Shown here piece after piece: positions 15,430 to 26,196 of a DNA stretch of 64,000 bases (positions within the stretch are counted from its first letter, which is position 1; each line of letters begins with the position of its first letter). The DNA comes from Escherichia coli (GTDB taxonomy: Bacteria > Pseudomonadota > Gammaproteobacteria > Enterobacterales > Enterobacteriaceae): NCBI RefSeq assembly GCF_003991155.1, contig NZ_CP031293.1; one strand, 5' to 3'. The translations under genes were made by a program, and so were the position numbers. Under the pieces are notes generated by a model, which worked only from the letters and a program-made list of their open reading frames with translations, was not told where the DNA came from and ran no database searches.

Positions 15430-16914
15430 ATGCGAAAAATAATTACTCATTTCAAAGTTGTTTTAACGTTACTTCTACCAGTAACCGTATCTGCCCAGCA
15501 GATACAGTGGCAATCCTGTATGGCCAGTCAATTCAACCACTGGTTTGGTGAGGAAAAACCGTCTCCTGACTTACTATGTGGTTATTTGTCTGTTCCATTA
15601 AAATATACAGACACAGGCGGAGATGCTTCTTATGAAAAAAAATCACAAGTCAAACTAGCGTTGACAAAATTGCCGGCAAAAAGCAAGCATAAAGGAAGTA
15701 TCCTGATAATAAGTGGTGGTCCCGGGTTACCAGGCATAAATCCTTATATTAACTTTGACTGGCCAGTCACAAATCTTCGTGAGTCATGGGATATTATTGG
15801 ATTTGATCCTCGAGGCGTCGGACAGTCCACTCCGACAATAAACTGCCGGCAATCAGATACAGAGACTCAGGAAAACATAACCGAAAAGCAACAAGTATTA
15901 AATAAAATTAATGCCTGTATCCATAATACCGGAGCCGAAGTCATTCGCCATATCGGCTCTAACGAGGCTGTATACGATATTGATCGTATTAGGCAAGCCT
16001 TGGGGGATAAACAACTGACAGCCGTGGCGTATTCGTATGGAACTCAAATTGCAGCCTTATATGCAGAACGTTTTCCCTACAACGTAAGATCTATCGTTCT
16101 TGATGGAGTCGTCGATATCGATGACCTGGAGGACAACTTCACATGGCAACTCAAACAGGCACAGAGTTATCAGGAAACGTTTGATCGCTTTGCATCCTGG
16201 TGTGCGCGTACAAAAAGTTGCCCGCTTTCTTCAGACAGAGATAAGGCAATAACTCAGTTCCATGAGCTATTATCAAAATTACATCACAAACCTTTATTAG
16301 ACAGTAAGGGAGAAAATATATCTTCAGATGAACTCATATCATTAACAACAGACCTTCTGCTATGGCGTTCATCATGGCCAACCCTTGCAACTGCCATACG
16401 CCAGTTCTCTCAGGGGATTGTCAGTAATGAAATTGAAACTGCGCTCAGTGCTCCGATAGCCTCAGAAGAGTCAAGCGATGCTTCGGGGGTAATCCTCTGT
16501 GTAGATCAGGGGGATGAGCAATTAACACCAGAAGAGCGAAAATCCCGAAAAGACGCTCTTGCGAATGCCTTCCCGGCTATTAACTTTGACAATGGACGTT
16601 CCGATTCACCTGATTTTTGTGAATTATGGCCAATACATAGCGACCTGAACAAAACTCGCCTGAAAAATACTGTTCTGCCCTCTGGTTTACTGTTTGTAGC
16701 ACACAAATACGACCCAACAACGCCCTGGATTAATGCCCGTAAGATGGCAGAGAAATTTTCCAGCCCGTTACTAACAATAAATGGTGATGGGCATACATTA
16801 GCTCTCACCGGAGTTAATTTATGTGTAGATAAAGCAGTTGTACATCACCTGATCACTCCACAAAAAATAGAAAATATATACTGCCCAGGAAATTCTGAAG
16901 CAGAAATACAATAA
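15430..16914 (+). CDS. Secreted alpha/beta-hydrolase, S33 (tripeptidyl aminopeptidase-like) family
   Basis: 494-aa ORF with signal peptide MRKIITHFKVVLTLLLPVTVSA; nucleophile elbow AYSYGTQ (GxSxG). Confidence 0.7.
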   Translation: MRKIITHFKVVLTLLLPVTVSAQQIQWQSCMASQFNHWFGEEKPSPDLLCGYLSVPLKYTDTGGDASYEKKSQVKLALTKLPAKSKHKGSILIISGGPGLPGINPYINFDWPVTNLRESWDIIGFDPRGVGQSTPTINCRQSDTETQENITEKQQVLNKINACIHNTGAEVIRHIGSNEAVYDIDRIRQALGDKQLTAVAYSYGTQIAALYAERFPYNVRSIVLDGVVDIDDLEDNFTWQLKQAQSYQETFDRFASWCARTKSCPLSSDRDKAITQFHELLSKLHHKPLLDSKGENISSDELISLTTDLLLWRSSWPTLATAIRQFSQGIVSNEIETALSAPIASEESSDASGVILCVDQGDEQLTPEERKSRKDALANAFPAINFDNGRSDSPDFCELWPIHSDLNKTRLKNTVLPSGLLFVAHKYDPTTPWINARKMAEKFSSPLLTINGDGHTLALTGVNLCVDKAVVHHLITPQKIENIYCPGNSEAEIQ

Positions 16915-16976: not shown

Positions 16977-17180
16977 TATTTTTGTTATTCTTGTATGAAA
17001 TCGTCTCATGTACACGGTCCTTTTTTCGCCGAAAACTGATATTACTTTAATCAAAAGTTGACGTGCCAGATTCGAAGTAAATTTATAAAATATCAAATCA
17101 ATATACATTTTGCACCTTCGAGATAGTAATTGCTGTTACTGTAACATGAGTTACAAACAGCTTCATACCCAGAGCTACTG

Positions 17181-17400
17181 ATGTATCAACACGATTCAAC
17201 AATACCCGATATTTATTCCATGCCTCCAGCAACGATCTTTCTTCCTCCGTTGCGATTTCCCAGCATCCTGCAGTGGCGCAATATACTCACTGAATTCCTG
17301 GATGTAGAACTGTGTGGTGACGGTCTTCCAGCCATTCGGCTCCTGCTGTATCGAAGCATACCAGGCTATTTCAATATCGCTATGCTGCGGCAGCATTTAA
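17181..17400 (-). pseudogene. tfa: Tail fibre assembly (Tfa) 3' remnant, frameshifted
   Basis: Minus-strand frames read ...EYIAPLQDA and [27 protein letters not shown] in different frames; no N-terminus. Confidence 0.65.
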
Positions 17401-17452: not shown

Positions 17453-18121
17453 ATGGTGAAATTAATGAAAAAAAACACAGATGATGGGGCTAAAATTTAC
17501 ACACCACTTACCCTAAAGCTTTATGACTGGTGGGTTTTGGGAGTATCAAATCGGCTTGCATGGGGATGTCCTACAAAGGAACACCTTCTTCCACACTTTC
17601 TGGAACATTTAGGTAACAACCATCTGGATATTGGTGTTGGAACTGGGTTTTACCTTACTCACGTACCTGAGAGCAGTCTGATATCTTTAATGGATTTGAA
17701 CGAAGCTAGCCTGAACGCGGCATCTACAAGGGCTGGGGAATCAAAAATTAAACATAAAATTAGCCATGATGTTTTTGAACCTTATCCCGCGGCGTTACAT
17801 GGTCAATTTGATTCCATTTCCATGTTTTACCTTCTTCACTGCCTGCCTGGAAATATATCTACAAAAAGCTGTGTAATACGCAATGCGGCGCAGGCCTTAA
17901 CTGACGATGGAACTCTATACGGAGCCACAATTCTTGGCGATGGAGTTGTGCACAATAGCTTCGGTCAAAAACTGATGCGCATTTACAATCAGAAAGGCAT
18001 CTTTTCAAACACAAAAGATTCCGAAGAAGGCTTAACACATATACTCTCAGAGCATTTCGAGAATGTTAAAACCAAGGTTCAAGGTACTGTAGTAATGTTT
18101 TCCGCTTCAGGGAAAAAATAG
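17453..18121 (+). CDS. ybcY: Class I SAM-dependent methyltransferase (YbcY-like)
   Basis: 222-aa ORF with motif I LDIGVGTGFY; sits between tfa remnants as ybcY does in DLP12. Confidence 0.7.
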   Translation: MVKLMKKNTDDGAKIYTPLTLKLYDWWVLGVSNRLAWGCPTKEHLLPHFLEHLGNNHLDIGVGTGFYLTHVPESSLISLMDLNEASLNAASTRAGESKIKHKISHDVFEPYPAALHGQFDSISMFYLLHCLPGNISTKSCVIRNAAQALTDDGTLYGATILGDGVVHNSFGQKLMRIYNQKGIFSNTKDSEEGLTHILSEHFENVKTKVQGTVVMFSASGKK

Positions 18122-18222
18122 CATCCAACCGCAGCACGTTCTTGCTTAAGACGTGCTGCGGCATAATCCCAATGATTACTCCCTGACAGGGTTCGTAGGC
18201 CACTCAATATCAGGTGCAGTTG

Positions 18223-18300
18223 ATGTATCAACACGGTTCAGCAACACCCGATACTTCTTCCAGGCTTCCAGCAACGAGGTTTCTTCCTCCGTTGCATATA
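18223..18300 (-). pseudogene. tfa: Tail fibre assembly (Tfa) C-terminal remnant, second copy
   Basis: Minus-strand frame reads [25 protein letters not shown]; direct-repeat homolog of 17181-17260. Confidence 0.6.
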
Positions 18301-18617: not shown

Positions 18618-19322
18618 TTATCTAATATCGCTTCGGGAAGTTAATAACAACTTTAATTCTGACTCAAGTTCATCAACTCTTTCAGTCAGTTTCTGGATAT
18701 GGTGAATCAGTGGAACAACCAGACGTTCGTACATTACACCTTCGGCAACAAGGCCATTGCTGGAAATAGCTTCAGGAGCATCATCTTCGTTAGCTGGTCG
18801 CCAGTGTACAAACTGAGGAGCAATTTCTCCTACTTCCTCGGCAATCAATCCGTAGAATCCCCAGTCACGCCTGTCATTTTCGCATTGCGACCTGTACCAC
18901 ACAGGGCGCATCCTGAAAATGAGATCGGCGTGCTCTGAATCTATTGTCTCTACTGAATGTTTATAGCGGATAGACGATGTTGACCGCAGCACAGACGAAA
19001 TTGCAGGGTCAGGATTAAGATAAAGGTTTGCCGCCGCTGTAGTCGTGGCCAAATTCCATAAATAAAACGCTTCACGACCTGTCAGTGGATAAAAATCTCC
19101 GCCATAACGACCACTTTCCAGATCGTTCACTTCCACTTTGTTTTTCAGCTTATTATCAACTTCAGTTTTTGTGTATCTGGAGCTGATATCCTGCTTTGCA
19201 CTGGTCATCTCAGTCTGAAGCGTTGATACTTTTCTGCTAATTGATGAAATATCTTCCTTAGCTTTACTGACATCTCCCTTTAGCTTGGTGATATCTCCTG
19301 GAATTACTGTCGATGTAGCCAT
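18618..19322 (-). CDS. Tail-fibre-like protein with coiled coil and C-terminal S74-type intramolecular chaperone domain
   Basis: 234-aa ORF; C-terminal pattern RPVWYR...GFYGLIAEEVGEIAPQFV...LVVPLIHHIQKL resembles S74 chaperone domains. Confidence 0.55.
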   Translation of the reverse strand: MATSTVIPGDITKLKGDVSKAKEDISSISRKVSTLQTEMTSAKQDISSRYTKTEVDNKLKNKVEVNDLESGRYGGDFYPLTGREAFYLWNLATTTAAANLYLNPDPAISSVLRSTSSIRYKHSVETIDSEHADLIFRMRPVWYRSQCENDRRDWGFYGLIAEEVGEIAPQFVHWRPANEDDAPEAISSNGLVAEGVMYERLVVPLIHHIQKLTERVDELESELKLLLTSRSDIR

Positions 19323-19331
19323 TTTTCTGCC

Positions 19332-19613
19332 TCACATCCAGCCACGAAGTTGATGCTCAACAACAACCGCGTATTTATCGAATATTGACGATTTTTTTGC
19401 ATCATTAATGATGCGCACGTTTACAAAATATCCATCTTCCTTAACACATACCGGTTCGCCATCTTCAGTCAGCTCTCCGGTTTCTTTGTACACGTTACCT
19501 ATCACGTCAATAAGAATATCATCCTGCATCGACTCGTCATCATAATAACCAGCACTCTCCATAAAGGTCGAAAAGTCGGCCCTGTCGGCAAATTTGAGTG
19601 TTAAATCTTTCAT
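19332..19613 (-). CDS. Hypothetical small phage protein
   Basis: 93-aa ORF directly downstream of stf with overlapping stop/start. Confidence 0.4.
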   Translation of the reverse strand: MKDLTLKFADRADFSTFMESAGYYDDESMQDDILIDVIGNVYKETGELTEDGEPVCVKEDGYFVNVRIINDAKKSSIFDKYAVVVEHQLRGWM

Positions 19614-21991
19614 TAGATTGACTCCCCCACCTGAGCATCAGTCAATGCCTTGTGCCATATTCTGAAATTCCTGACATGACCAAATAAATGACGTAACCCG
19701 GCTGTAGTCTGGCCTCCAATACGGATAATTGCGGTGTTCTGAATATAGGACCATGTGGTTTTTGTTTCGCTGGATATACGCCCGTTACTTACTGAGCACG
19801 TAGACTGATCTGACTTTACACGCATCCCCATAACCATTTTTTCAAGCAATGCGTTTTCGTTTACCCGTCTGTTAGCTCCTCCAATATCGCAATAAGGAAA
19901 TCCGTCGTAATCTGTTGAATGACCGAAGCCAAGAATAATAGCCGCTCCGGTTTGATGACCGCCGGTATCAAAAACACGCGGTGCTGCATTTGGCGTTTTA
20001 TACCAGTTCTTATGTACCTCACAAAGAACCGTAAAAGGAAGATTATAAAGGTTATTCTTGATTGGGACTGTCACCATATCGCTTGCGCGGGTCGCTGCCG
20101 TCGTTTCTGATATAATAAAAGATGATGCGCAAGGGCCATTTTCAACCTGAGGGGTGGACAGGAAAATATAATCTCCCGATTCAACGACACCACCTTCTTT
20201 TGGTGCGTATTGTATTGCCGAGGTTATGCAGGACTCGTCAATTGCCTGAATCGTTGCCTCTGCAAAAATCCAGCCCGTAACCTCATCCTTGTTAACTCGA
20301 GCAGTGAGCCTGTCGGCAGCTACACCGGTGATTTCAACCGATAAAGACCGCGTATTAACAATGGCATATCCAAGATTAGATGAAGCGCTGCCATCGAAGG
20401 CTTCAAACCTGATCCTTAACCGGAGTTCCAAATCCGTTTTAAATCTGCACGATGTCGTCACACACTTATTATCGCCTGATACATCGACAGCCCCGGTTAC
20501 TGTAACTGACGCCATGTTAACAGGAGAGGTTTTCCCAATCAGAGAATCGTTACAGACAAATTTTCCATAAGTAAAACCAAAACTATCCGTCCCGGTTTCG
20601 GGCACATCCATATTTACCGACTTGCCCCAACTGGCAGGGGTTTCCGAATTGAGCATGTAGTTCGTTCTCTGACCCTCAATAAGCAGGCCATCACGTTCAA
20701 ATCGTGGCTCGTCAATGGCAGCCTCTGTCAGCACACCAGATTTATTAATATAGGTTGCTTTCGATGCGCGTTTAAACTTTACAACCTTATCGCCAGGCAT
20801 CGTTATTTCATCATCACCAATAACAATCTTTTTATATGATGGCGAAAACCCCGTAATCATATCCAGTGAATCGTTAAACGGTATCCACACATCAGGCAGT
20901 GGCTGTAAGACATATTTATACGGCTCTGCTGCCTGACTTGCATACTCTCTGGCTGCGTCTTCACTTGCTTTTGCAGCGGTCTGGCTTGCAGCGGATGCTT
21001 TCGCCGAGTTCGCCGCTGCAGTCTCGCTTGTCTTTGCATTGGTTTCACTGGTTTTTGCTGCTTTTTGACTGTTGGCTGATGCAGTGGCAGAAGCAGCCGC
21101 CGCACTTGCAGAACCAGCTGCGGCACTCTCGCTTTGGGCTGCTGCATCCTGACTGTTTTTCGCCGCAGTTTCGCTGGCTTTAGCATTCGTTTCGCTGGTC
21201 TTCGCTGCCGTCTGGCTGGACTTTGCGTTGGTTTCGCTCGTCTTCGCTGCTTTCTGACTGTTAGCCGCAGCAGTTGCTGATCCAGCTGCTGAAGTCGCAG
21301 AACCGGCTGCTGCGCTCTCGCTTTCAGCTGCTGCAGCCTGGCTGTTTTTCGCCGCAGTTTCACTGGCTTTAGCATTCGTTTCGCTGGTCTTCGCTGCCGT
21401 CTGGCTTGACTTTGCGTTGGTTTCGCTCGTCTTTGCTGCTGTCTCGCTATTTTTCGCGTTGGTTTCTGATTTTTTGGCTGCTGTCGCGGAATTTGCCGAT
21501 GCAGTCTGTGAGGTCGCTGCCGCCTGTGCGCTGTTAGCTGCATTCGTTTCTGAGGTTTTCGCCGCGTTCTTCGATGATGCCGCTGCAGTTTCGGATTTCT
21601 TTGCCGCCGCTGCGCTCTGAGAGGCGGCTTCGGCGTTGCGTGCCACTTCTTCCACCATTGCCTCAAAACGACGCAATGCCTCCGGCATGACATCATCTTC
21701 CGTCATGGCACCGAGAAAATCATTCAGCGTACCTGGTCTGGAGCCTTCATAGACGGTAATGGTCCCAGCATGTGAAGGCGGAAAACCTTCAACCAGCAGG
21801 GTGACGCTGTACTGGCCATACTCAACATCCATGCTGTAACGTCCGGCTTCATCCGGATTTTCAGAAGCCACCGTGTTCACCAGTACCGTGGTGCTGTTAC
21901 GCTTTGCCTTCAGTTGAATAGTGCAGTTCTGTATTGGTTTTCCCGCACCATCTTTCAGCACACCTGAGATTTTTACTGCTGCCATATCCAC
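19613..21991 (-). CDS. stf: Side tail fibre protein Stf: lambda/Rac-type N-terminus, Ser/Thr/Ala repeat array, divergent C-terminal domain
   Basis: 792-aa ORF ...AAVKISGVLKDGAGKPIQNCTIQLKAKRNSTTV...; repeated KTSETNAKxSxTAAK units. Confidence 0.85.
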   Translation of the reverse strand: MDMAAVKISGVLKDGAGKPIQNCTIQLKAKRNSTTVLVNTVASENPDEAGRYSMDVEYGQYSVTLLVEGFPPSHAGTITVYEGSRPGTLNDFLGAMTEDDVMPEALRRFEAMVEEVARNAEAASQSAAAAKKSETAAASSKNAAKTSETNAANSAQAAATSQTASANSATAAKKSETNAKNSETAAKTSETNAKSSQTAAKTSETNAKASETAAKNSQAAAAESESAAAGSATSAAGSATAAANSQKAAKTSETNAKSSQTAAKTSETNAKASETAAKNSQDAAAQSESAAAGSASAAAASATASANSQKAAKTSETNAKTSETAAANSAKASAASQTAAKASEDAAREYASQAAEPYKYVLQPLPDVWIPFNDSLDMITGFSPSYKKIVIGDDEITMPGDKVVKFKRASKATYINKSGVLTEAAIDEPRFERDGLLIEGQRTNYMLNSETPASWGKSVNMDVPETGTDSFGFTYGKFVCNDSLIGKTSPVNMASVTVTGAVDVSGDNKCVTTSCRFKTDLELRLRIRFEAFDGSASSNLGYAIVNTRSLSVEITGVAADRLTARVNKDEVTGWIFAEATIQAIDESCITSAIQYAPKEGGVVESGDYIFLSTPQVENGPCASSFIISETTAATRASDMVTVPIKNNLYNLPFTVLCEVHKNWYKTPNAAPRVFDTGGHQTGAAIILGFGHSTDYDGFPYCDIGGANRRVNENALLEKMVMGMRVKSDQSTCSVSNGRISSETKTTWSYIQNTAIIRIGGQTTAGLRHLFGHVRNFRIWHKALTDAQVGESI

Positions 21992-22049
21992 TCCACAAAA
22001 AAGCCCGCCTGAACCGGCGGGCTGTCATAACACTGTGTTACCTGGCTAA

Positions 22050-22649
22050 TCAGAATTTATAACCGACACCCACGATGAAACCGTCAGTGCGCCAGTCGCC
22101 ACTGCCGGAGCCTTCATAAGCAATATCAATGGCCACGGATTCGGTCGGGTTAAACTGCACGCCAGCTCCCCACGCCAGAGACGTGTTGCTGTGGCGATCG
22201 TCATCACTTCCGGTCAGCACATCGTGCGTTTTCCCCTTGTTGTCAGTTACGCGGAGATAATCCCCGGAGAACGTCGAAACACGGCTGTAAGCCACACCTG
22301 CCATCGCATAAGCACTGAACCATTCATTCACGCGTACAGATGGCCCCGCCATCATGCTGAACCAGCGGTTACGCACTGAATCTTCATGCCAGCGGGTATC
22401 GCTGTAATGCGTTTTTTGCTCATCTTTGGCATTGGCATAACTGAATGACGTCACCAGCCCCAGCGTGTCCGTAAATTCATAACGGTATTTCACGTTAATG
22501 CCCTTCAGGTCATCACTGCCTGGCATATCAGTATGGGTCTGAAGATACCCGGCGCTTAGTGTGGACTGATGCTCTGCTGCGCTCGCTGGCGTACCAGCGG
22601 CAACCAGCCAGACTACTGCGGACAGAATAACAGCACATAATTTACGCAT
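22050..22649 (-). CDS. lom: Lom outer-membrane protein (Ail/Lom family)
   Basis: Start MRKLCAVILSAVVWLVAAGTPASA; C-terminus ...DGFIVGVGYKF. Confidence 0.9.
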   Translation of the reverse strand: MRKLCAVILSAVVWLVAAGTPASAAEHQSTLSAGYLQTHTDMPGSDDLKGINVKYRYEFTDTLGLVTSFSYANAKDEQKTHYSDTRWHEDSVRNRWFSMMAGPSVRVNEWFSAYAMAGVAYSRVSTFSGDYLRVTDNKGKTHDVLTGSDDDRHSNTSLAWGAGVQFNPTESVAIDIAYEGSGSGDWRTDGFIVGVGYKF

Positions 22650-22716
22650 AATTACCTCTCGCTTTTCTGCAATAAAAAAGGCGTCATTTCTGACGCCCAT
22701 ATTGGGGTTATAAAAT

Positions 22717-25700
22717 TCAGCTGATACTGATGCCTGCGGTGGCTTTCTTCATCACCACAACCAGCAAATCGCTGATACTTGCTGTGGGATACCAGCCATT
22801 TACCAGCCATGCCGATACAGAAAATTCCAGTGTCATGACACCACTGCCTGCAGGCATATCAATAACACCCGTATATATCAGCGTATTATCCAGAGCCGTT
22901 CGGTTATAAATTTCAGCACCGTTTTTTCGTACTATCAGACGGCATGAGGAGTAGATATCAGTATGATCTTGCTCATGTTTAGCGCCACTGAATGCCACCG
23001 CCGGGATAACAATTTGCCGGTCAAACGGCTGATCGTCATAAACCCTGACGGTAATGGTTCCTGATGGCCACCGCTCCGGTGCACGGGAGTCCCGGGGGAA
23101 AGCTTTGCCCACCGTTTTAACAATATCGCCTTCAATCTGGTTGGCTGACAGTTTTCCCAGAATCCGGCAGTTCTGATTAATCGTGACATTGTTGAGCGTC
23201 CCGGAGTTCGCATTCACGTTACCGCTGATATCGGCATTTTTCGCCGTCAGCCGCCCGTCCGGTGTCAGGGAAAATGCCGGAGGATTACCGCCGCTGGTAA
23301 TGGTGGGAGCCGTCAGGTATTTCAGGAACACTTCGTTCATGAATATCTGATCGCCCTGACCAACAAACATCGGCTTTGTGTTGCCATTCGCAGGATTAAT
23401 CATCGCAATCCTGTCTGCCGCCAGCAGCACCTGACTCTGCATGCCGTCAGGGGTGTTTTCAATACCGGCACCAATACCCGCGATATAAAGGCGTCCGTCC
23501 TGCATCTGCTGCAGCTTCACAGCCCACATGCTGTTCAGGTTATTATTTGTATCAACCTGAACCTTCTGTATCTGCTGGATCGCTGCACTCTGGTCTTCCA
23601 GTTTCTTATTGACGGTCTGCGTGATTTCATTACTGACATCCGTGATGGACGTTCTGATTTCCGCCAGGTCAGGCGCAAGCTGACCGTTATCAATCTGCGT
23701 CCACAACTCCTGAGCCAGATGGGTTTTCCCTATCTCTCCTTTGAAAAAATCCAGATAGCCGGATGCATCATCACTCGGCTGGCCAACAGCCTCCACGAAT
23801 GCCGATTTGCCAACGGTGTTCACACTGCGGATGTAAAAATAATAATCATGGCCCGGCCTGATATTGATACTGGCAGCTATCCAGTACAGCGCCGTGCCAA
23901 GATAGCGCGCTGTGGTTTCAACCTGTCTGATATCCGCAATCCGCTTTTCCGAGAACCAGAACTCAAACTGTACCGTCGGGTCATAAACGGCAAGATGCGG
24001 CGTGGCGGTGATCTGAAAATAGCCCGGCGTCAGCTCAATCTGTGACGGCGCTGCCGGTGCGGCAATCCGGAACGATACCGATGCAGGATCGCCCTGCTGT
24101 CCCCACGCATTTACCGCCCGGACTGTCAGCCTGTAGTTCCCCAGCGCCAGTTGCGTGAAGCGGTATGTGGTTTCCGCCGTCCGGGCCGTGCTGACCAGCC
24201 GCTCACTGCCGTCATCCGCTGCCACGGTCAGGCGAAGCATGAAACTCACGCCCTTCACCACCTTCGGCGTGTCCCAGCGGGCCAGTACCTGATACTCCCC
24301 GCTGTCTGCGGTGACTTCGGCAGTCAGGTGCTGCACCGCTGGCGGCGTGACACCATTCACCGTGCCGCTCTGGTCGCCGTCAAAGTGCGCCCCGTTATCC
24401 ACGATGGCTTCTTTTTCCGGTACATGCTGCACGGCGGTGATGGCATACGTGCCGTCGTCGTTCTCACGGATACTCACGCAGCGGAACAGGCGCTGGCGCA
24501 GCGTCGGCAGCTTCAGCCCCCACACGCTGTATTCGGCTATCCCGTCAGGAAACCGGCTCACTTTCACCTTCACGCCGTCGGTGACGGACTGGACTTCCAC
24601 GCTGACCGGATTGCCCTGCCCGTCAACCAGGCTTATCAGCGTGGTACCGGAGGATGGCAGCGTGATTTCACGGTCGAGCGTCAGCGTCCGGGTCTGGCTG
24701 TTCACCGCCAGCACGCGCCCGCCAATGCTGATCCCCGCATAGTCATCATCGCAGATTTCAATAACATCACCCGGTACATGGCGAAGCCCTTCTGCGCCGA
24801 CGCTGAAATCCACGGTCTGCGTTTCCAGCAGTTCTGTTTTAATCAGCCACAGCCCGGCGCGGTGTGCCTGCCCCCGGCTGGTACAGCCAAAGGCATCCAT
24901 CTTCGTGACGTTACGACCGTAACGGGCAATGGCCTGCGTGTCCTCCACAAGCTCTGTCGCCGTCTCCCAGCCGTTATTCGGGTCAATCCAGTTCACCTCA
25001 ACGGCATTATGACGGTCCTTCAGGGCGCTGAAGCTGTAGCGGAACGGCGCGCCATCATCCGGCATCACCACATTACTACGGTTATAGGTCCACACCTTAT
25101 CCGATGGCCGGTCCTGCACGAACGTCAGCGTCTGCCCGTTCCATACCGGCATACAGCGCATCGCCGAGCAGAAATCACTGAGCACATCCCACGCCTTGCG
25201 CTGCGTGGTCAGCCAGGCATTACAGGTGATGCGCGGCTCCGTGCCACCAAAGCCATCCGGCACCGACTGGTCGCAATTCTGGCCGATGACATACAGCGCC
25301 CATTTGTCCACATCCGCCGCACCGAGACGCTTCCCCATGCCGTAGCGCGGATGGGTCAGCATATCCCACAGACACCAGGCCATGTTGTTGCTGTATGCCG
25401 GTTTAAACGTCCCGTCCCAGATACCGCTGTATTGCCGCGTCTGCGGGTTATAGTTCGACGGCACCTGCAGAATACGCCCGCGCAGATGATAATTACGGCT
25501 CACCTGCTGGCTGCCGAACTGCTCCGAGTCCACCTGCACGCCGACCAGTGCCGTGTTCGGGTAGCACTGTTTCACATCGATGATTTCGGTGTATGACGAC
25601 CAGAGCGTTTTGTTCTGCAGCTGGTCTGTGGTGCTGTCCGGCGTCATCCTGCGCATCCGGATATTAAACGGGCGCGGCGGCAGGTTATCCACCACCACTG

Positions 25701-26196
25701 AGGCCAGATACTGCGAGGTGGTTTTACCCTTAATGGTGATGTCTTTTTCCGTCACCCAGCCACCGTTACGTTGTATCTGAACCAGCAGGCGGACTTCCGA
25801 TGGATTCCTGTCCCCCTTTGAGGTGGTTTCCACCAGTGCCTGCACACCGAAGGTAAAGCGCAGACGGTCGATGTTTGCCGACGTGATGGTGCGGGTGATC
25901 GGCGTGTCATATTTCACTTCCGTACCCAGCACCGTCTCGGAACCGGAGGATTCAAATCCCTCCGGCGGAGTCTGCTCCTGCTCACCGGCCCGGAACACCA
26001 CCGTGACGCCGGATATATTGGTATTCCCCTCACTGTCCAGCACCGGCGTACTGTTCAGCAGCACGCTTTTTAATCCATCCACCGGACCTTCAACCGGCCC
26101 TTCGCTGATGGCATCGATCACACTCAGCAGCTGCGTGGACTTCAGGTTGTCCTTCGCTTCGCGCGGGGTATGCCCCTTACTGCTGCCTTTACCCAT
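22717..26196 (-). CDS. J: Tail tip host-specificity protein J
   Basis: 1159-aa [29 protein letters not shown]...; position after I. Confidence 0.9.

Follow-up and report, generated by a model that had tools for sequence, protein, structure and literature searches.

The side-tail-fibre module described here lies in a stretch of 64,000 nucleotides (nt) of Escherichia coli DNA (NCBI RefSeq assembly GCF_003991155.1, contig NZ_CP031293.1), referred to below as the window, at the DLP12/ompT-envY integration locus. On the minus strand, J and lom are followed by the side tail fibre gene stf, by genes for proteins of 93 and 234 amino acids (aa), here named p93 and p234, by the small gene p97 and by stubs of tfa (Table 1). 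The module is probably a working side-tail-fibre cassette of a lambdoid prophage, built from exchangeable modules: a lambda-like collar and repeat-rich shaft carrying a swapped, lectin-like head, a partner protein of this head in the tfa slot, and a short branch fibre with an S74 intramolecular-chaperone domain. Confidence in this model, taken as a whole and including recombination among the shaft repeats, is moderate. The original prediction, made from the letters and a list of open reading frames (ORFs), had described a separate 93-aa ORF and a 234-aa protein after Stf and only fragments of tfa further on; both genes were found, as were two C-terminal tfa stubs.

No significant match was detected between Stf aa 347-792 and lambda orf-314 or Tfa, so the C-terminal ~450 aa are indeed unlike lambda Stf, as had been proposed, and the alignment with the canonical protein does not reach the C-terminus. 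The junction with the lambda-like part is located at aa ~347-365, where the segment homologous to the lambda proximal coiled coil ends, at the position of the hinge. In Ur-lambda Stf, a collar (1-91) and a linker precede the proximal coiled coil (102-393), which is followed by a hinge (394-422) and then the distal part (PMC12617516). Engineered lambda Stf chimeras have R393 as one join site (PMC11338833), and the junction in the window falls at about this place. The position of stf downstream of J and lom is that expected for a lambda-type Stf.

Predicted as a single chain, the head gave a confident model of a monomer of lectin-like beta-sandwiches. Its matches include concanavalin-like, LamG and CBM40 lectin domains, the clostridial neurotoxin receptor-binding domain (BoNT Hc), pentraxins and AbnA domain 4, together with the phage baseplate proteins Pa193 gp46 and E217 gp45. 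A profile of the head family matched the RcGTA head-spike fibre Rcc01080 (PDB 6tb9) with E=1.9e-42. The RcGTA fibre consists of a single subunit and attaches particles to capsule polysaccharide (PMC7296036); it has a domain homologous to the Stf head, but it lacks a shaft and belongs to the capsid, not the tail, with an N-terminal Leu-Gly peptide as its anchor. Relatives of Stf aa 347-792 are numerous (1,928 among 1.84 billion representative proteins) and include P2-type fibres with PF12571/PF03406 N-termini, and in the whole-head alignments among the matches listed the head is always C-terminal in the protein.

Variation among prophages points in the same direction. A comparison of 48 distinct prophage Stf sequences gave identities of at least 96% for the N-terminal and repeat parts (the N-terminal part down to 91% in a few), whereas the heads form discrete classes of 44, 48, 57, 69, 77 and 86-88% identity. 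This combination is characteristic of a receptor-binding part that is swapped and diversifies, and it supports the swapped receptor-binding specificity that had been predicted. Judging from homology, the modelled fold and these allele comparisons, the head most likely binds a glycan, probably O-antigen or lipopolysaccharide (LPS), reversibly and as the primary receptor, and the head alleles would decide strain specificity. Residues R430, G435, E439, N444, Q615, E617 and S624 of Stf are invariant in 53 head homologues, down to 25% identity, and may mark a sugar-binding, cation-binding or catalytic site.

The gene following stf, p93, occupies the tfa slot. It has no known fold, no sequence or fold similarity between p93 and the Tfa family was found, and its scans against NCBIfam and PADLOC gave no significant match. 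Homologues of p93 (27-52% identity) are the next genes after those of lectin-head fibres in lambda-, T1-, 9g-, T5-, P2- and P1-like contexts, with an S74 gene present or not. They follow the fibre in the T5-like phages HMD-P4 and IrisVonRoten, the T1-like KarlJaspers, the 9g-like VogelGryff and ESCO3, and in the metagenomic contigs L087, L093 and L094. In a P2-like myophage the homologue takes the gpG position, with gpU next and no S74 gene, and in the P1-like contig L095 two tandem lectin-head fibres each have their own p93 homologue. In most of the rows listed, the p93 match touches a gene annotated as tail fibre. Distant p93 homologues were found downstream of distant head homologues, and the census by p93 alignment returned only relatives at 88-98% identity. 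Records of rV5-like myoviruses carry p93 homologues as well, the locus contexts given here coming from the other lineages.

Homologues of p93 with at least 80% protein coverage were present in 181 phage records, compared with 51 for the N-terminal peptide of the S74 proteins, and p93 is kept where the S74 gene is absent; p93 is therefore tied to the head and not to the S74 protein. As with the Tfa, gpG and gpU chaperones, it is located immediately downstream of the fibre distal domain and co-varies with it. By this genetic coupling, a one-to-one pairing with lectin-type heads in many phage lineages, p93 is the head's own partner in the tfa/gpG/gpU slot. Its role is most likely that of an assembly or stabilising factor, perhaps one that stays bound.

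In the literature searched, neither p93 nor the short S74 protein is described by more than an annotation label. p93 might represent an undescribed tail-fibre accessory family, unlike Tfa, gpG and gpU in both sequence and fold and paired one-to-one with monomer-folding lectin heads, with the short S74 protein docking by its ~15-residue N-terminal peptide on head and p93 and thus giving branched lambdoid side fibres with two exchangeable specificities; this wider proposal is advanced tentatively, as possible more than probable.

Two observations on p93 homologues may be added. The tandem fibre genes of contig L095 (1075-6727; 711 and 979 aa), with a separate p93 homologue behind each, constitute a natural system for testing partner specificity. 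Phage records labelled Campylobacter or Listeria (MG065653, MG065635, MG065655, MG065652 and OR848352) contain p93 homologues that score as those of rV5- and T5-like coliphages do, suggesting mislabelled hosts or mixed assemblies.

Next in order, p234 is composed of an N-terminal anchor peptide, a stalk with a repeat- and coiled-coil-like character, a small beta region and a C-terminal S74 domain. The original prediction had assigned the C-terminus to this domain, and the assignment was borne out by the match to PF13884, by the phmmer match of p234 to an L-shaped tail-fibre chain (PDB 8hqz_d, E=2.7e-6) and by the Ser-Lys dyad. The dyad, S116-x4-K121 in the motif TSSIRYK (Ser116 at 18975-18977, Lys121 at 18960-18962), aligns with SGIEYK in 8hqz_d and with SDRDLK/SDSRVK in longer alleles; TSSIRYK was kept in all 46 short alleles of the census. 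Scans of p234 against NCBIfam and PADLOC yielded no significant match. From these residues, the S74 domain of p234 would cut itself off by autoproteolysis at Ser116.

Across the 80 related loci of a census, fibre, p93, S74 protein and small membrane ORF follow one another in this order almost without exception. Two S74 alleles occurred, of 234 and 346 aa, with the first ~20 residues (MATSTVIPxDIxxLK) and the S74 domain in common and a different middle, and p97 is 98% identical beside both, forming the conserved right flank. Since the differing middle lies between conserved flanks, the N-terminal peptide and p97, this variable stretch of the S74 gene is a cassette. The DNA resemblance to phage 2G7b stops ~22 nt into the p234 gene. 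The same N-terminal peptide opens S74 proteins of 225-574 aa in T1-, 9g- and T5-like phages, and alleles of 345-574 aa have this peptide in common with p234 and a replaced middle. S74 alleles assort independently of head alleles. Short, full-length homologues of p234 (221-245 aa, 55-71% identity) are widespread on phage genomes and contigs of ~50 kb, for example BEBK14, PeterMerian and Jahat_MG145. The peptide shared by p234 and the longer alleles that replace it suggests a branch fibre of the kind of DT57C LtfB; the attachment of this second fibre to the first is only suggested, by the conserved peptide and by the recombination breakpoint.

The lateral fibres of phage DT57C offer the nearest precedent for such a branch, with LtfA anchored on the tail, LtfB hanging on LtfA and each recognising an O-antigen (PMC10713586). 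The DT57C system (PMC4728585, PMC10713586; PDB 8hqz) resembles the module in its tandem fibre genes, the second product being thought to hang on the first, in the S74 domain and in the presumed role in O-antigen recognition, and LtfA residues 953-1068 align with p234 aa 110-222. In the window, however, the first fibre has a lectin head without an S74 domain, a 93-aa protein is interposed and the second fibre is short (mature ~115 aa). The S74 chaperones of endosialidases and of T5 pb1 share with p234 the C-terminal position directly after a fibre passenger and the Ser-x4-Lys dyad, whereas the p234 passenger is a stalk of ~115 aa in place of a large beta-helical spike or fibre tip, and its cleavage is only predicted.

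The same three-gene cassette, including an S74 protein with the same N-terminal peptide, is present in the BASEL phages KarlJaspers (Bas06), VogelGryff (Bas25) and IrisVonRoten (Bas32). Their lectin-head fibres are 43-53% identical to Stf in Bas06 and Bas32 and similar at the DNA level in Bas25, their p93 homologues are 37-52% identical, and Bas06 carries a short S74 allele that is 59% identical over its full length. These phages differ from the prophage in being virulent, in their lineage-specific N-terminal attachment parts and in the longer S74 protein of Bas25 (388 aa) and Bas32 (574 aa). Among the BASEL T5-like phages, only IrisVonRoten infects K-12 in which the O16 antigen has been restored (PMC8594841); given its cassette, this is consistent with recognition of O-antigen by either the head or the S74 fibre.

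The proximal part of Stf is of lambda type, as the resemblance to lambda/Rac Stf noted at the outset had indicated: aa 5-346 are 58% identical to lambda orf-401, and the collar domain matched by PF08400 would anchor the fibre at the tail tip. Compared with Ur-lambda Stf and Tfa, the module agrees in position after J and lom, in the homologous collar and proximal coiled coil and in the kind of heptad, but everything beyond the hinge is replaced, with no gp37-like distal domain, no OmpC-binding tip and only stubs of tfa. The ORF of stf counted from a GTG encodes 792 aa; the true start is likely the ATG at 21985, preceded by GGAG, which would give a product of 790 aa beginning with MAAVKIS as in lambda.

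The shaft heptads show no break of phase and have a composition of 37% Ala and 19% Ser. The repeat tract had been placed at roughly 20990-21640, essentially correctly, with a unit of 14-15 aa that corresponds to two heptads. When the stf DNA was searched with Tandem Repeats Finder, as had been proposed, a period of 189 nt was recovered, with periods of 42 and 21 nt nested within it. Copies of the resulting 63-aa unit are 90% identical in amino acids and 87% in nucleotides, the longest exact match being 44 nt. By shaft length, relatives fall into classes of 726-730, 779-797 and 852 aa, the indels map to aa ~220-321 and amount to one 63-aa unit fewer or more, and in a set of 5.8 billion proteins the Stf homologues span 665-792 aa. 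The prediction that the repeats expand and contract thus holds, relatives differing by -1, 0 or +1 unit; slippage of the polymerase, the mechanism proposed for it, is less likely than unequal recombination, because the 189-nt units share exact matches of up to 44 nt.

The repeats probably also affect annotation. In several RefSeq genomes that match the window at 100% DNA identity, annotation breaks the intact stf into three pieces (e.g. NZ_CP054556.1 6116-8488, equivalent to window 19613-21985): a 'partial' N-terminal pseudogene, an ORF of 330 nt in another frame of the repeats, and a 'phage head spike fiber domain-containing protein'. The split is apparently an artefact of the low-complexity repeats. 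An ORF of 279 aa, rich in Arg and Gln and read in a different frame of the stf repeats (20857-21696, minus strand), is almost certainly a by-product of them and no gene.

The following mechanism is proposed. By homology with Ur-lambda, Stf would trimerise through its lambda-type collar and 33-heptad coiled-coil shaft and attach to the tail tip. Beyond the lambda hinge position each chain would end in a self-contained, two-domain lectin-like head that folds chain by chain and, to go by its observed fold and homology, would bind a surface polysaccharide such as O-antigen or LPS as a reversible primary receptor. p93 would replace Tfa as the dedicated accessory or assembly protein of this head. 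p234 would make a second, short trimeric fibre, its S74 domain templating the folding of its own stalk before a predicted self-cleavage at Ser116, and the remaining piece of ~115 aa would dock by its N-terminal peptide on Stf and p93 in a branched fibre comparable to LtfA/LtfB. Gain or loss of the 63-aa shaft unit by unequal recombination would change the length of the fibre.

Several points weigh against this mechanism. The binding of p93 to the head, the cleavage of p234 and the presence of p93 or p234 in the virion are putative. One distant homologue of the head (33% identity), whose neighbour genes are XkdV-like and glycine-rich, has no p93 gene, and the pairing is therefore not universal. 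The Pfam match of p234 aa 116-172 to Peptidase_S74 (PF13884) has a modest score (E=2.2e-5), and mature p234, at ~115 aa, would be mostly stalk with no obvious receptor-binding domain, an unusual size for a branch fibre. Only a single chain was used to model the transition from trimer to monomer at the head. Finally, the ConA-like fold also includes enzymes (GH16, lyases), so the head may be catalytic.

Other explanations of the same genes have to be considered. The location of p234 in the region where tfa would be, its very short passenger part and the annotation of its homologues as 'putative lateral tail fiber chaperone' (BASEL) or 'endosialidase chaperone' would suit a chaperone acting in trans on Stf, that is, a functional replacement for Tfa and not a structural fibre. 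This is unlikely, given that characterised S74 domains act in cis on their own chain, that P2- and P1-like lectin-head fibres have p93 yet no S74 gene, so the head needs none, that S74 and head alleles assort independently, and that S74 alleles with beta-rich passengers of 230-460 aa swap in behind the same N-terminal peptide, as alternative fibres would. The different fibre-folding solution put forward in the original prediction is upheld in outline, except that the chain folded by the S74 domain would be its own, of 234 aa, and not Stf, and the protein that tracks the head in the tfa slot is p93. For p93, in turn, a position between the two fibre genes and co-inheritance with the S74 N-terminal peptide on the same side of the recombination breakpoint could indicate a structural adaptor linking the S74 fibre to Stf in place of an assembly factor of the head; such an adaptor is doubtful in view of the excess of p93 records over those with the S74 anchor peptide, of the loci that keep p93 where the S74 gene is absent, and of contig L093, where a p93 homologue precedes an S74 protein without the anchor motif.

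A passive lectin is likewise preferred to a head that would break down O-antigen or capsule as a glycanase or lyase. In structure and in sequence, the head is best matched by proteins and domains without catalytic function (CBM40, AbnA domain 4, BoNT Hc, pentraxins and the RcGTA head fibre), the scans against Pfam and NCBIfam hit no family of glycoside hydrolases or lyases, and inspection by eye, which is not a rigorous test, revealed no GH16-type catalytic motif; an enzymatic head is thus quite improbable. The idea that the module is a decaying cryptic-prophage remnant without a functional fibre draws on the DLP12 site, the adjoining tfa stubs and the splitting of stf into pieces or pseudogenes by RefSeq in some genomes, and it deserves hardly any credence: the four ORFs are without exception intact and lie close together, the stf stop codon overlapping the ATG of p93 (TAATG), the ratios of nonsynonymous to synonymous substitution rates (dN/dS) are 0.1-0.28, the split annotation applies to DNA 100% identical to an uninterrupted ORF, and isolated phages such as 2G7b and IdasGreatGrand have the same arrangement, tfa stubs included. 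The individual dN/dS values, 0.23 for p234, 0.28 for p93 and 0.22 for p97, signify purifying selection and therefore maintained genes, not debris.

The cassette is common. Of 5,426 complete E. coli genomes, 301 (~5%) contain 80% or more of the region, and 27 records match it at an identity of at least 99%. No phage record covers 80% of the region at the DNA level because the head allele differs; the cassette itself occurs in the plaque-forming phages IdasGreatGrand, 2G7b, KarlJaspers, VogelGryff and IrisVonRoten. It has thus already been sequenced and annotated in isolated phages, and the window adds one allele of a hypervariable receptor-binding head. The annotations consulted label p93 and the short S74 protein only as 'hypothetical' or 'putative chaperone'. 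The range of E. coli strains that a phage reaches through the O-antigen layer depends on its side or lateral tail fibres, and chimeras of lambda Stf are already in use to retarget delivery particles (PMC11338833). If p93, and not the S74 protein, is the obligatory partner of the head, engineers learn which genes travel with a lectin-type head; if the S74 gene is an independent, swappable branch, they learn which gene is exchangeable.

Table 1. Features of the side-tail-fibre module and its surroundings (positions in the window)
Feature	Position	Strand	Basis or remark
J	22717-26196	minus	upstream of lom and stf
lom	22050-22700	minus	between J and stf
stf, side tail fibre gene	19613-21991	minus	phrog_1419 end to end, 1463 bits
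Stf aa 5-134, lambda-type N-terminal collar domain and linker	21590-21979	minus	Pfam PF08400, E=5.4e-67
Stf aa 118-348, coiled-coil shaft, 33 heptads (xSxTxAK)	20948-21640	minus	homology to lambda proximal coiled coil
Tandem repeat in shaft, 189 nt (63 aa, 9 heptads) x 2.3	21014-21444	minus	Tandem Repeats Finder score 638, 85% matches
Stf aa 347-792, non-lambda distal head, 446 aa: conserved neck and two ConA-like/LamG-like beta-sandwich domains	19616-20953	minus	
Stf aa 437-636, domain homologous to RcGTA head-spike fibre	20084-20683	minus	NCBIfam NF048003, 49.5 bits, cut-off 36
p93, acidic alpha/beta protein, 93 aa	19332-19613	minus	ORF
p234, short S74-domain fibre protein, 234 aa	18618-19322	minus	Pfam and alignments
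p234 aa 1-20 (MATSTVIPGDITKLKGDVSK), conserved N-terminal peptide, presumed docking	19263-19322	minus	shared with otherwise different S74 proteins
p234 aa 116-234, S74 chaperone domain	18621-18977	minus	Pfam PF13884
p97, predicted small membrane protein, 97 aa	18314-18607	minus	phrog_1443
tfa remnant 1, last 39 codons only	18179-18295	minus	lambda Tfa aa 156-194, 90% identity
tfa remnant 2, ~50 codons, frameshifted	17173-17318	minus	lambda Tfa aa ~132-182

The p97 protein (motif FIAREHTQAEYRW) gave no significant match in scans against Pfam, NCBIfam and PADLOC. It is conserved after several different Stf types, including those of phage 21, ev017 and Perceval, and a homologue in contig L095 (6835-7122) lies after the fibre/p93 pairs and before lydA/lydB-like genes; weaker matches were seen in phages of Halomonas, Cobetia and Aeromonas. 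An apparent co-variation of p97 with the S74 allele (95/97 versus 100/102 aa) was rejected as an artefact of start-codon choice, the proteins being 98% identical.

Between lom and stf, just upstream of the stf ribosome-binding site, a strong terminator-like hairpin was noted on the minus strand (22002-22023), its stem of 8 pairs, 7 of them G-C, being followed by a run of T. Beyond the fibre module, the plus strand encodes an alpha/beta-hydrolase (15430-16914) and a class I S-adenosylmethionine-dependent methyltransferase (17453-18121). Isolated phage 2G7b, which has the same cassette, carries both in identical order with identical tfa stubs; they are therefore phage cargo genes and not host genes.

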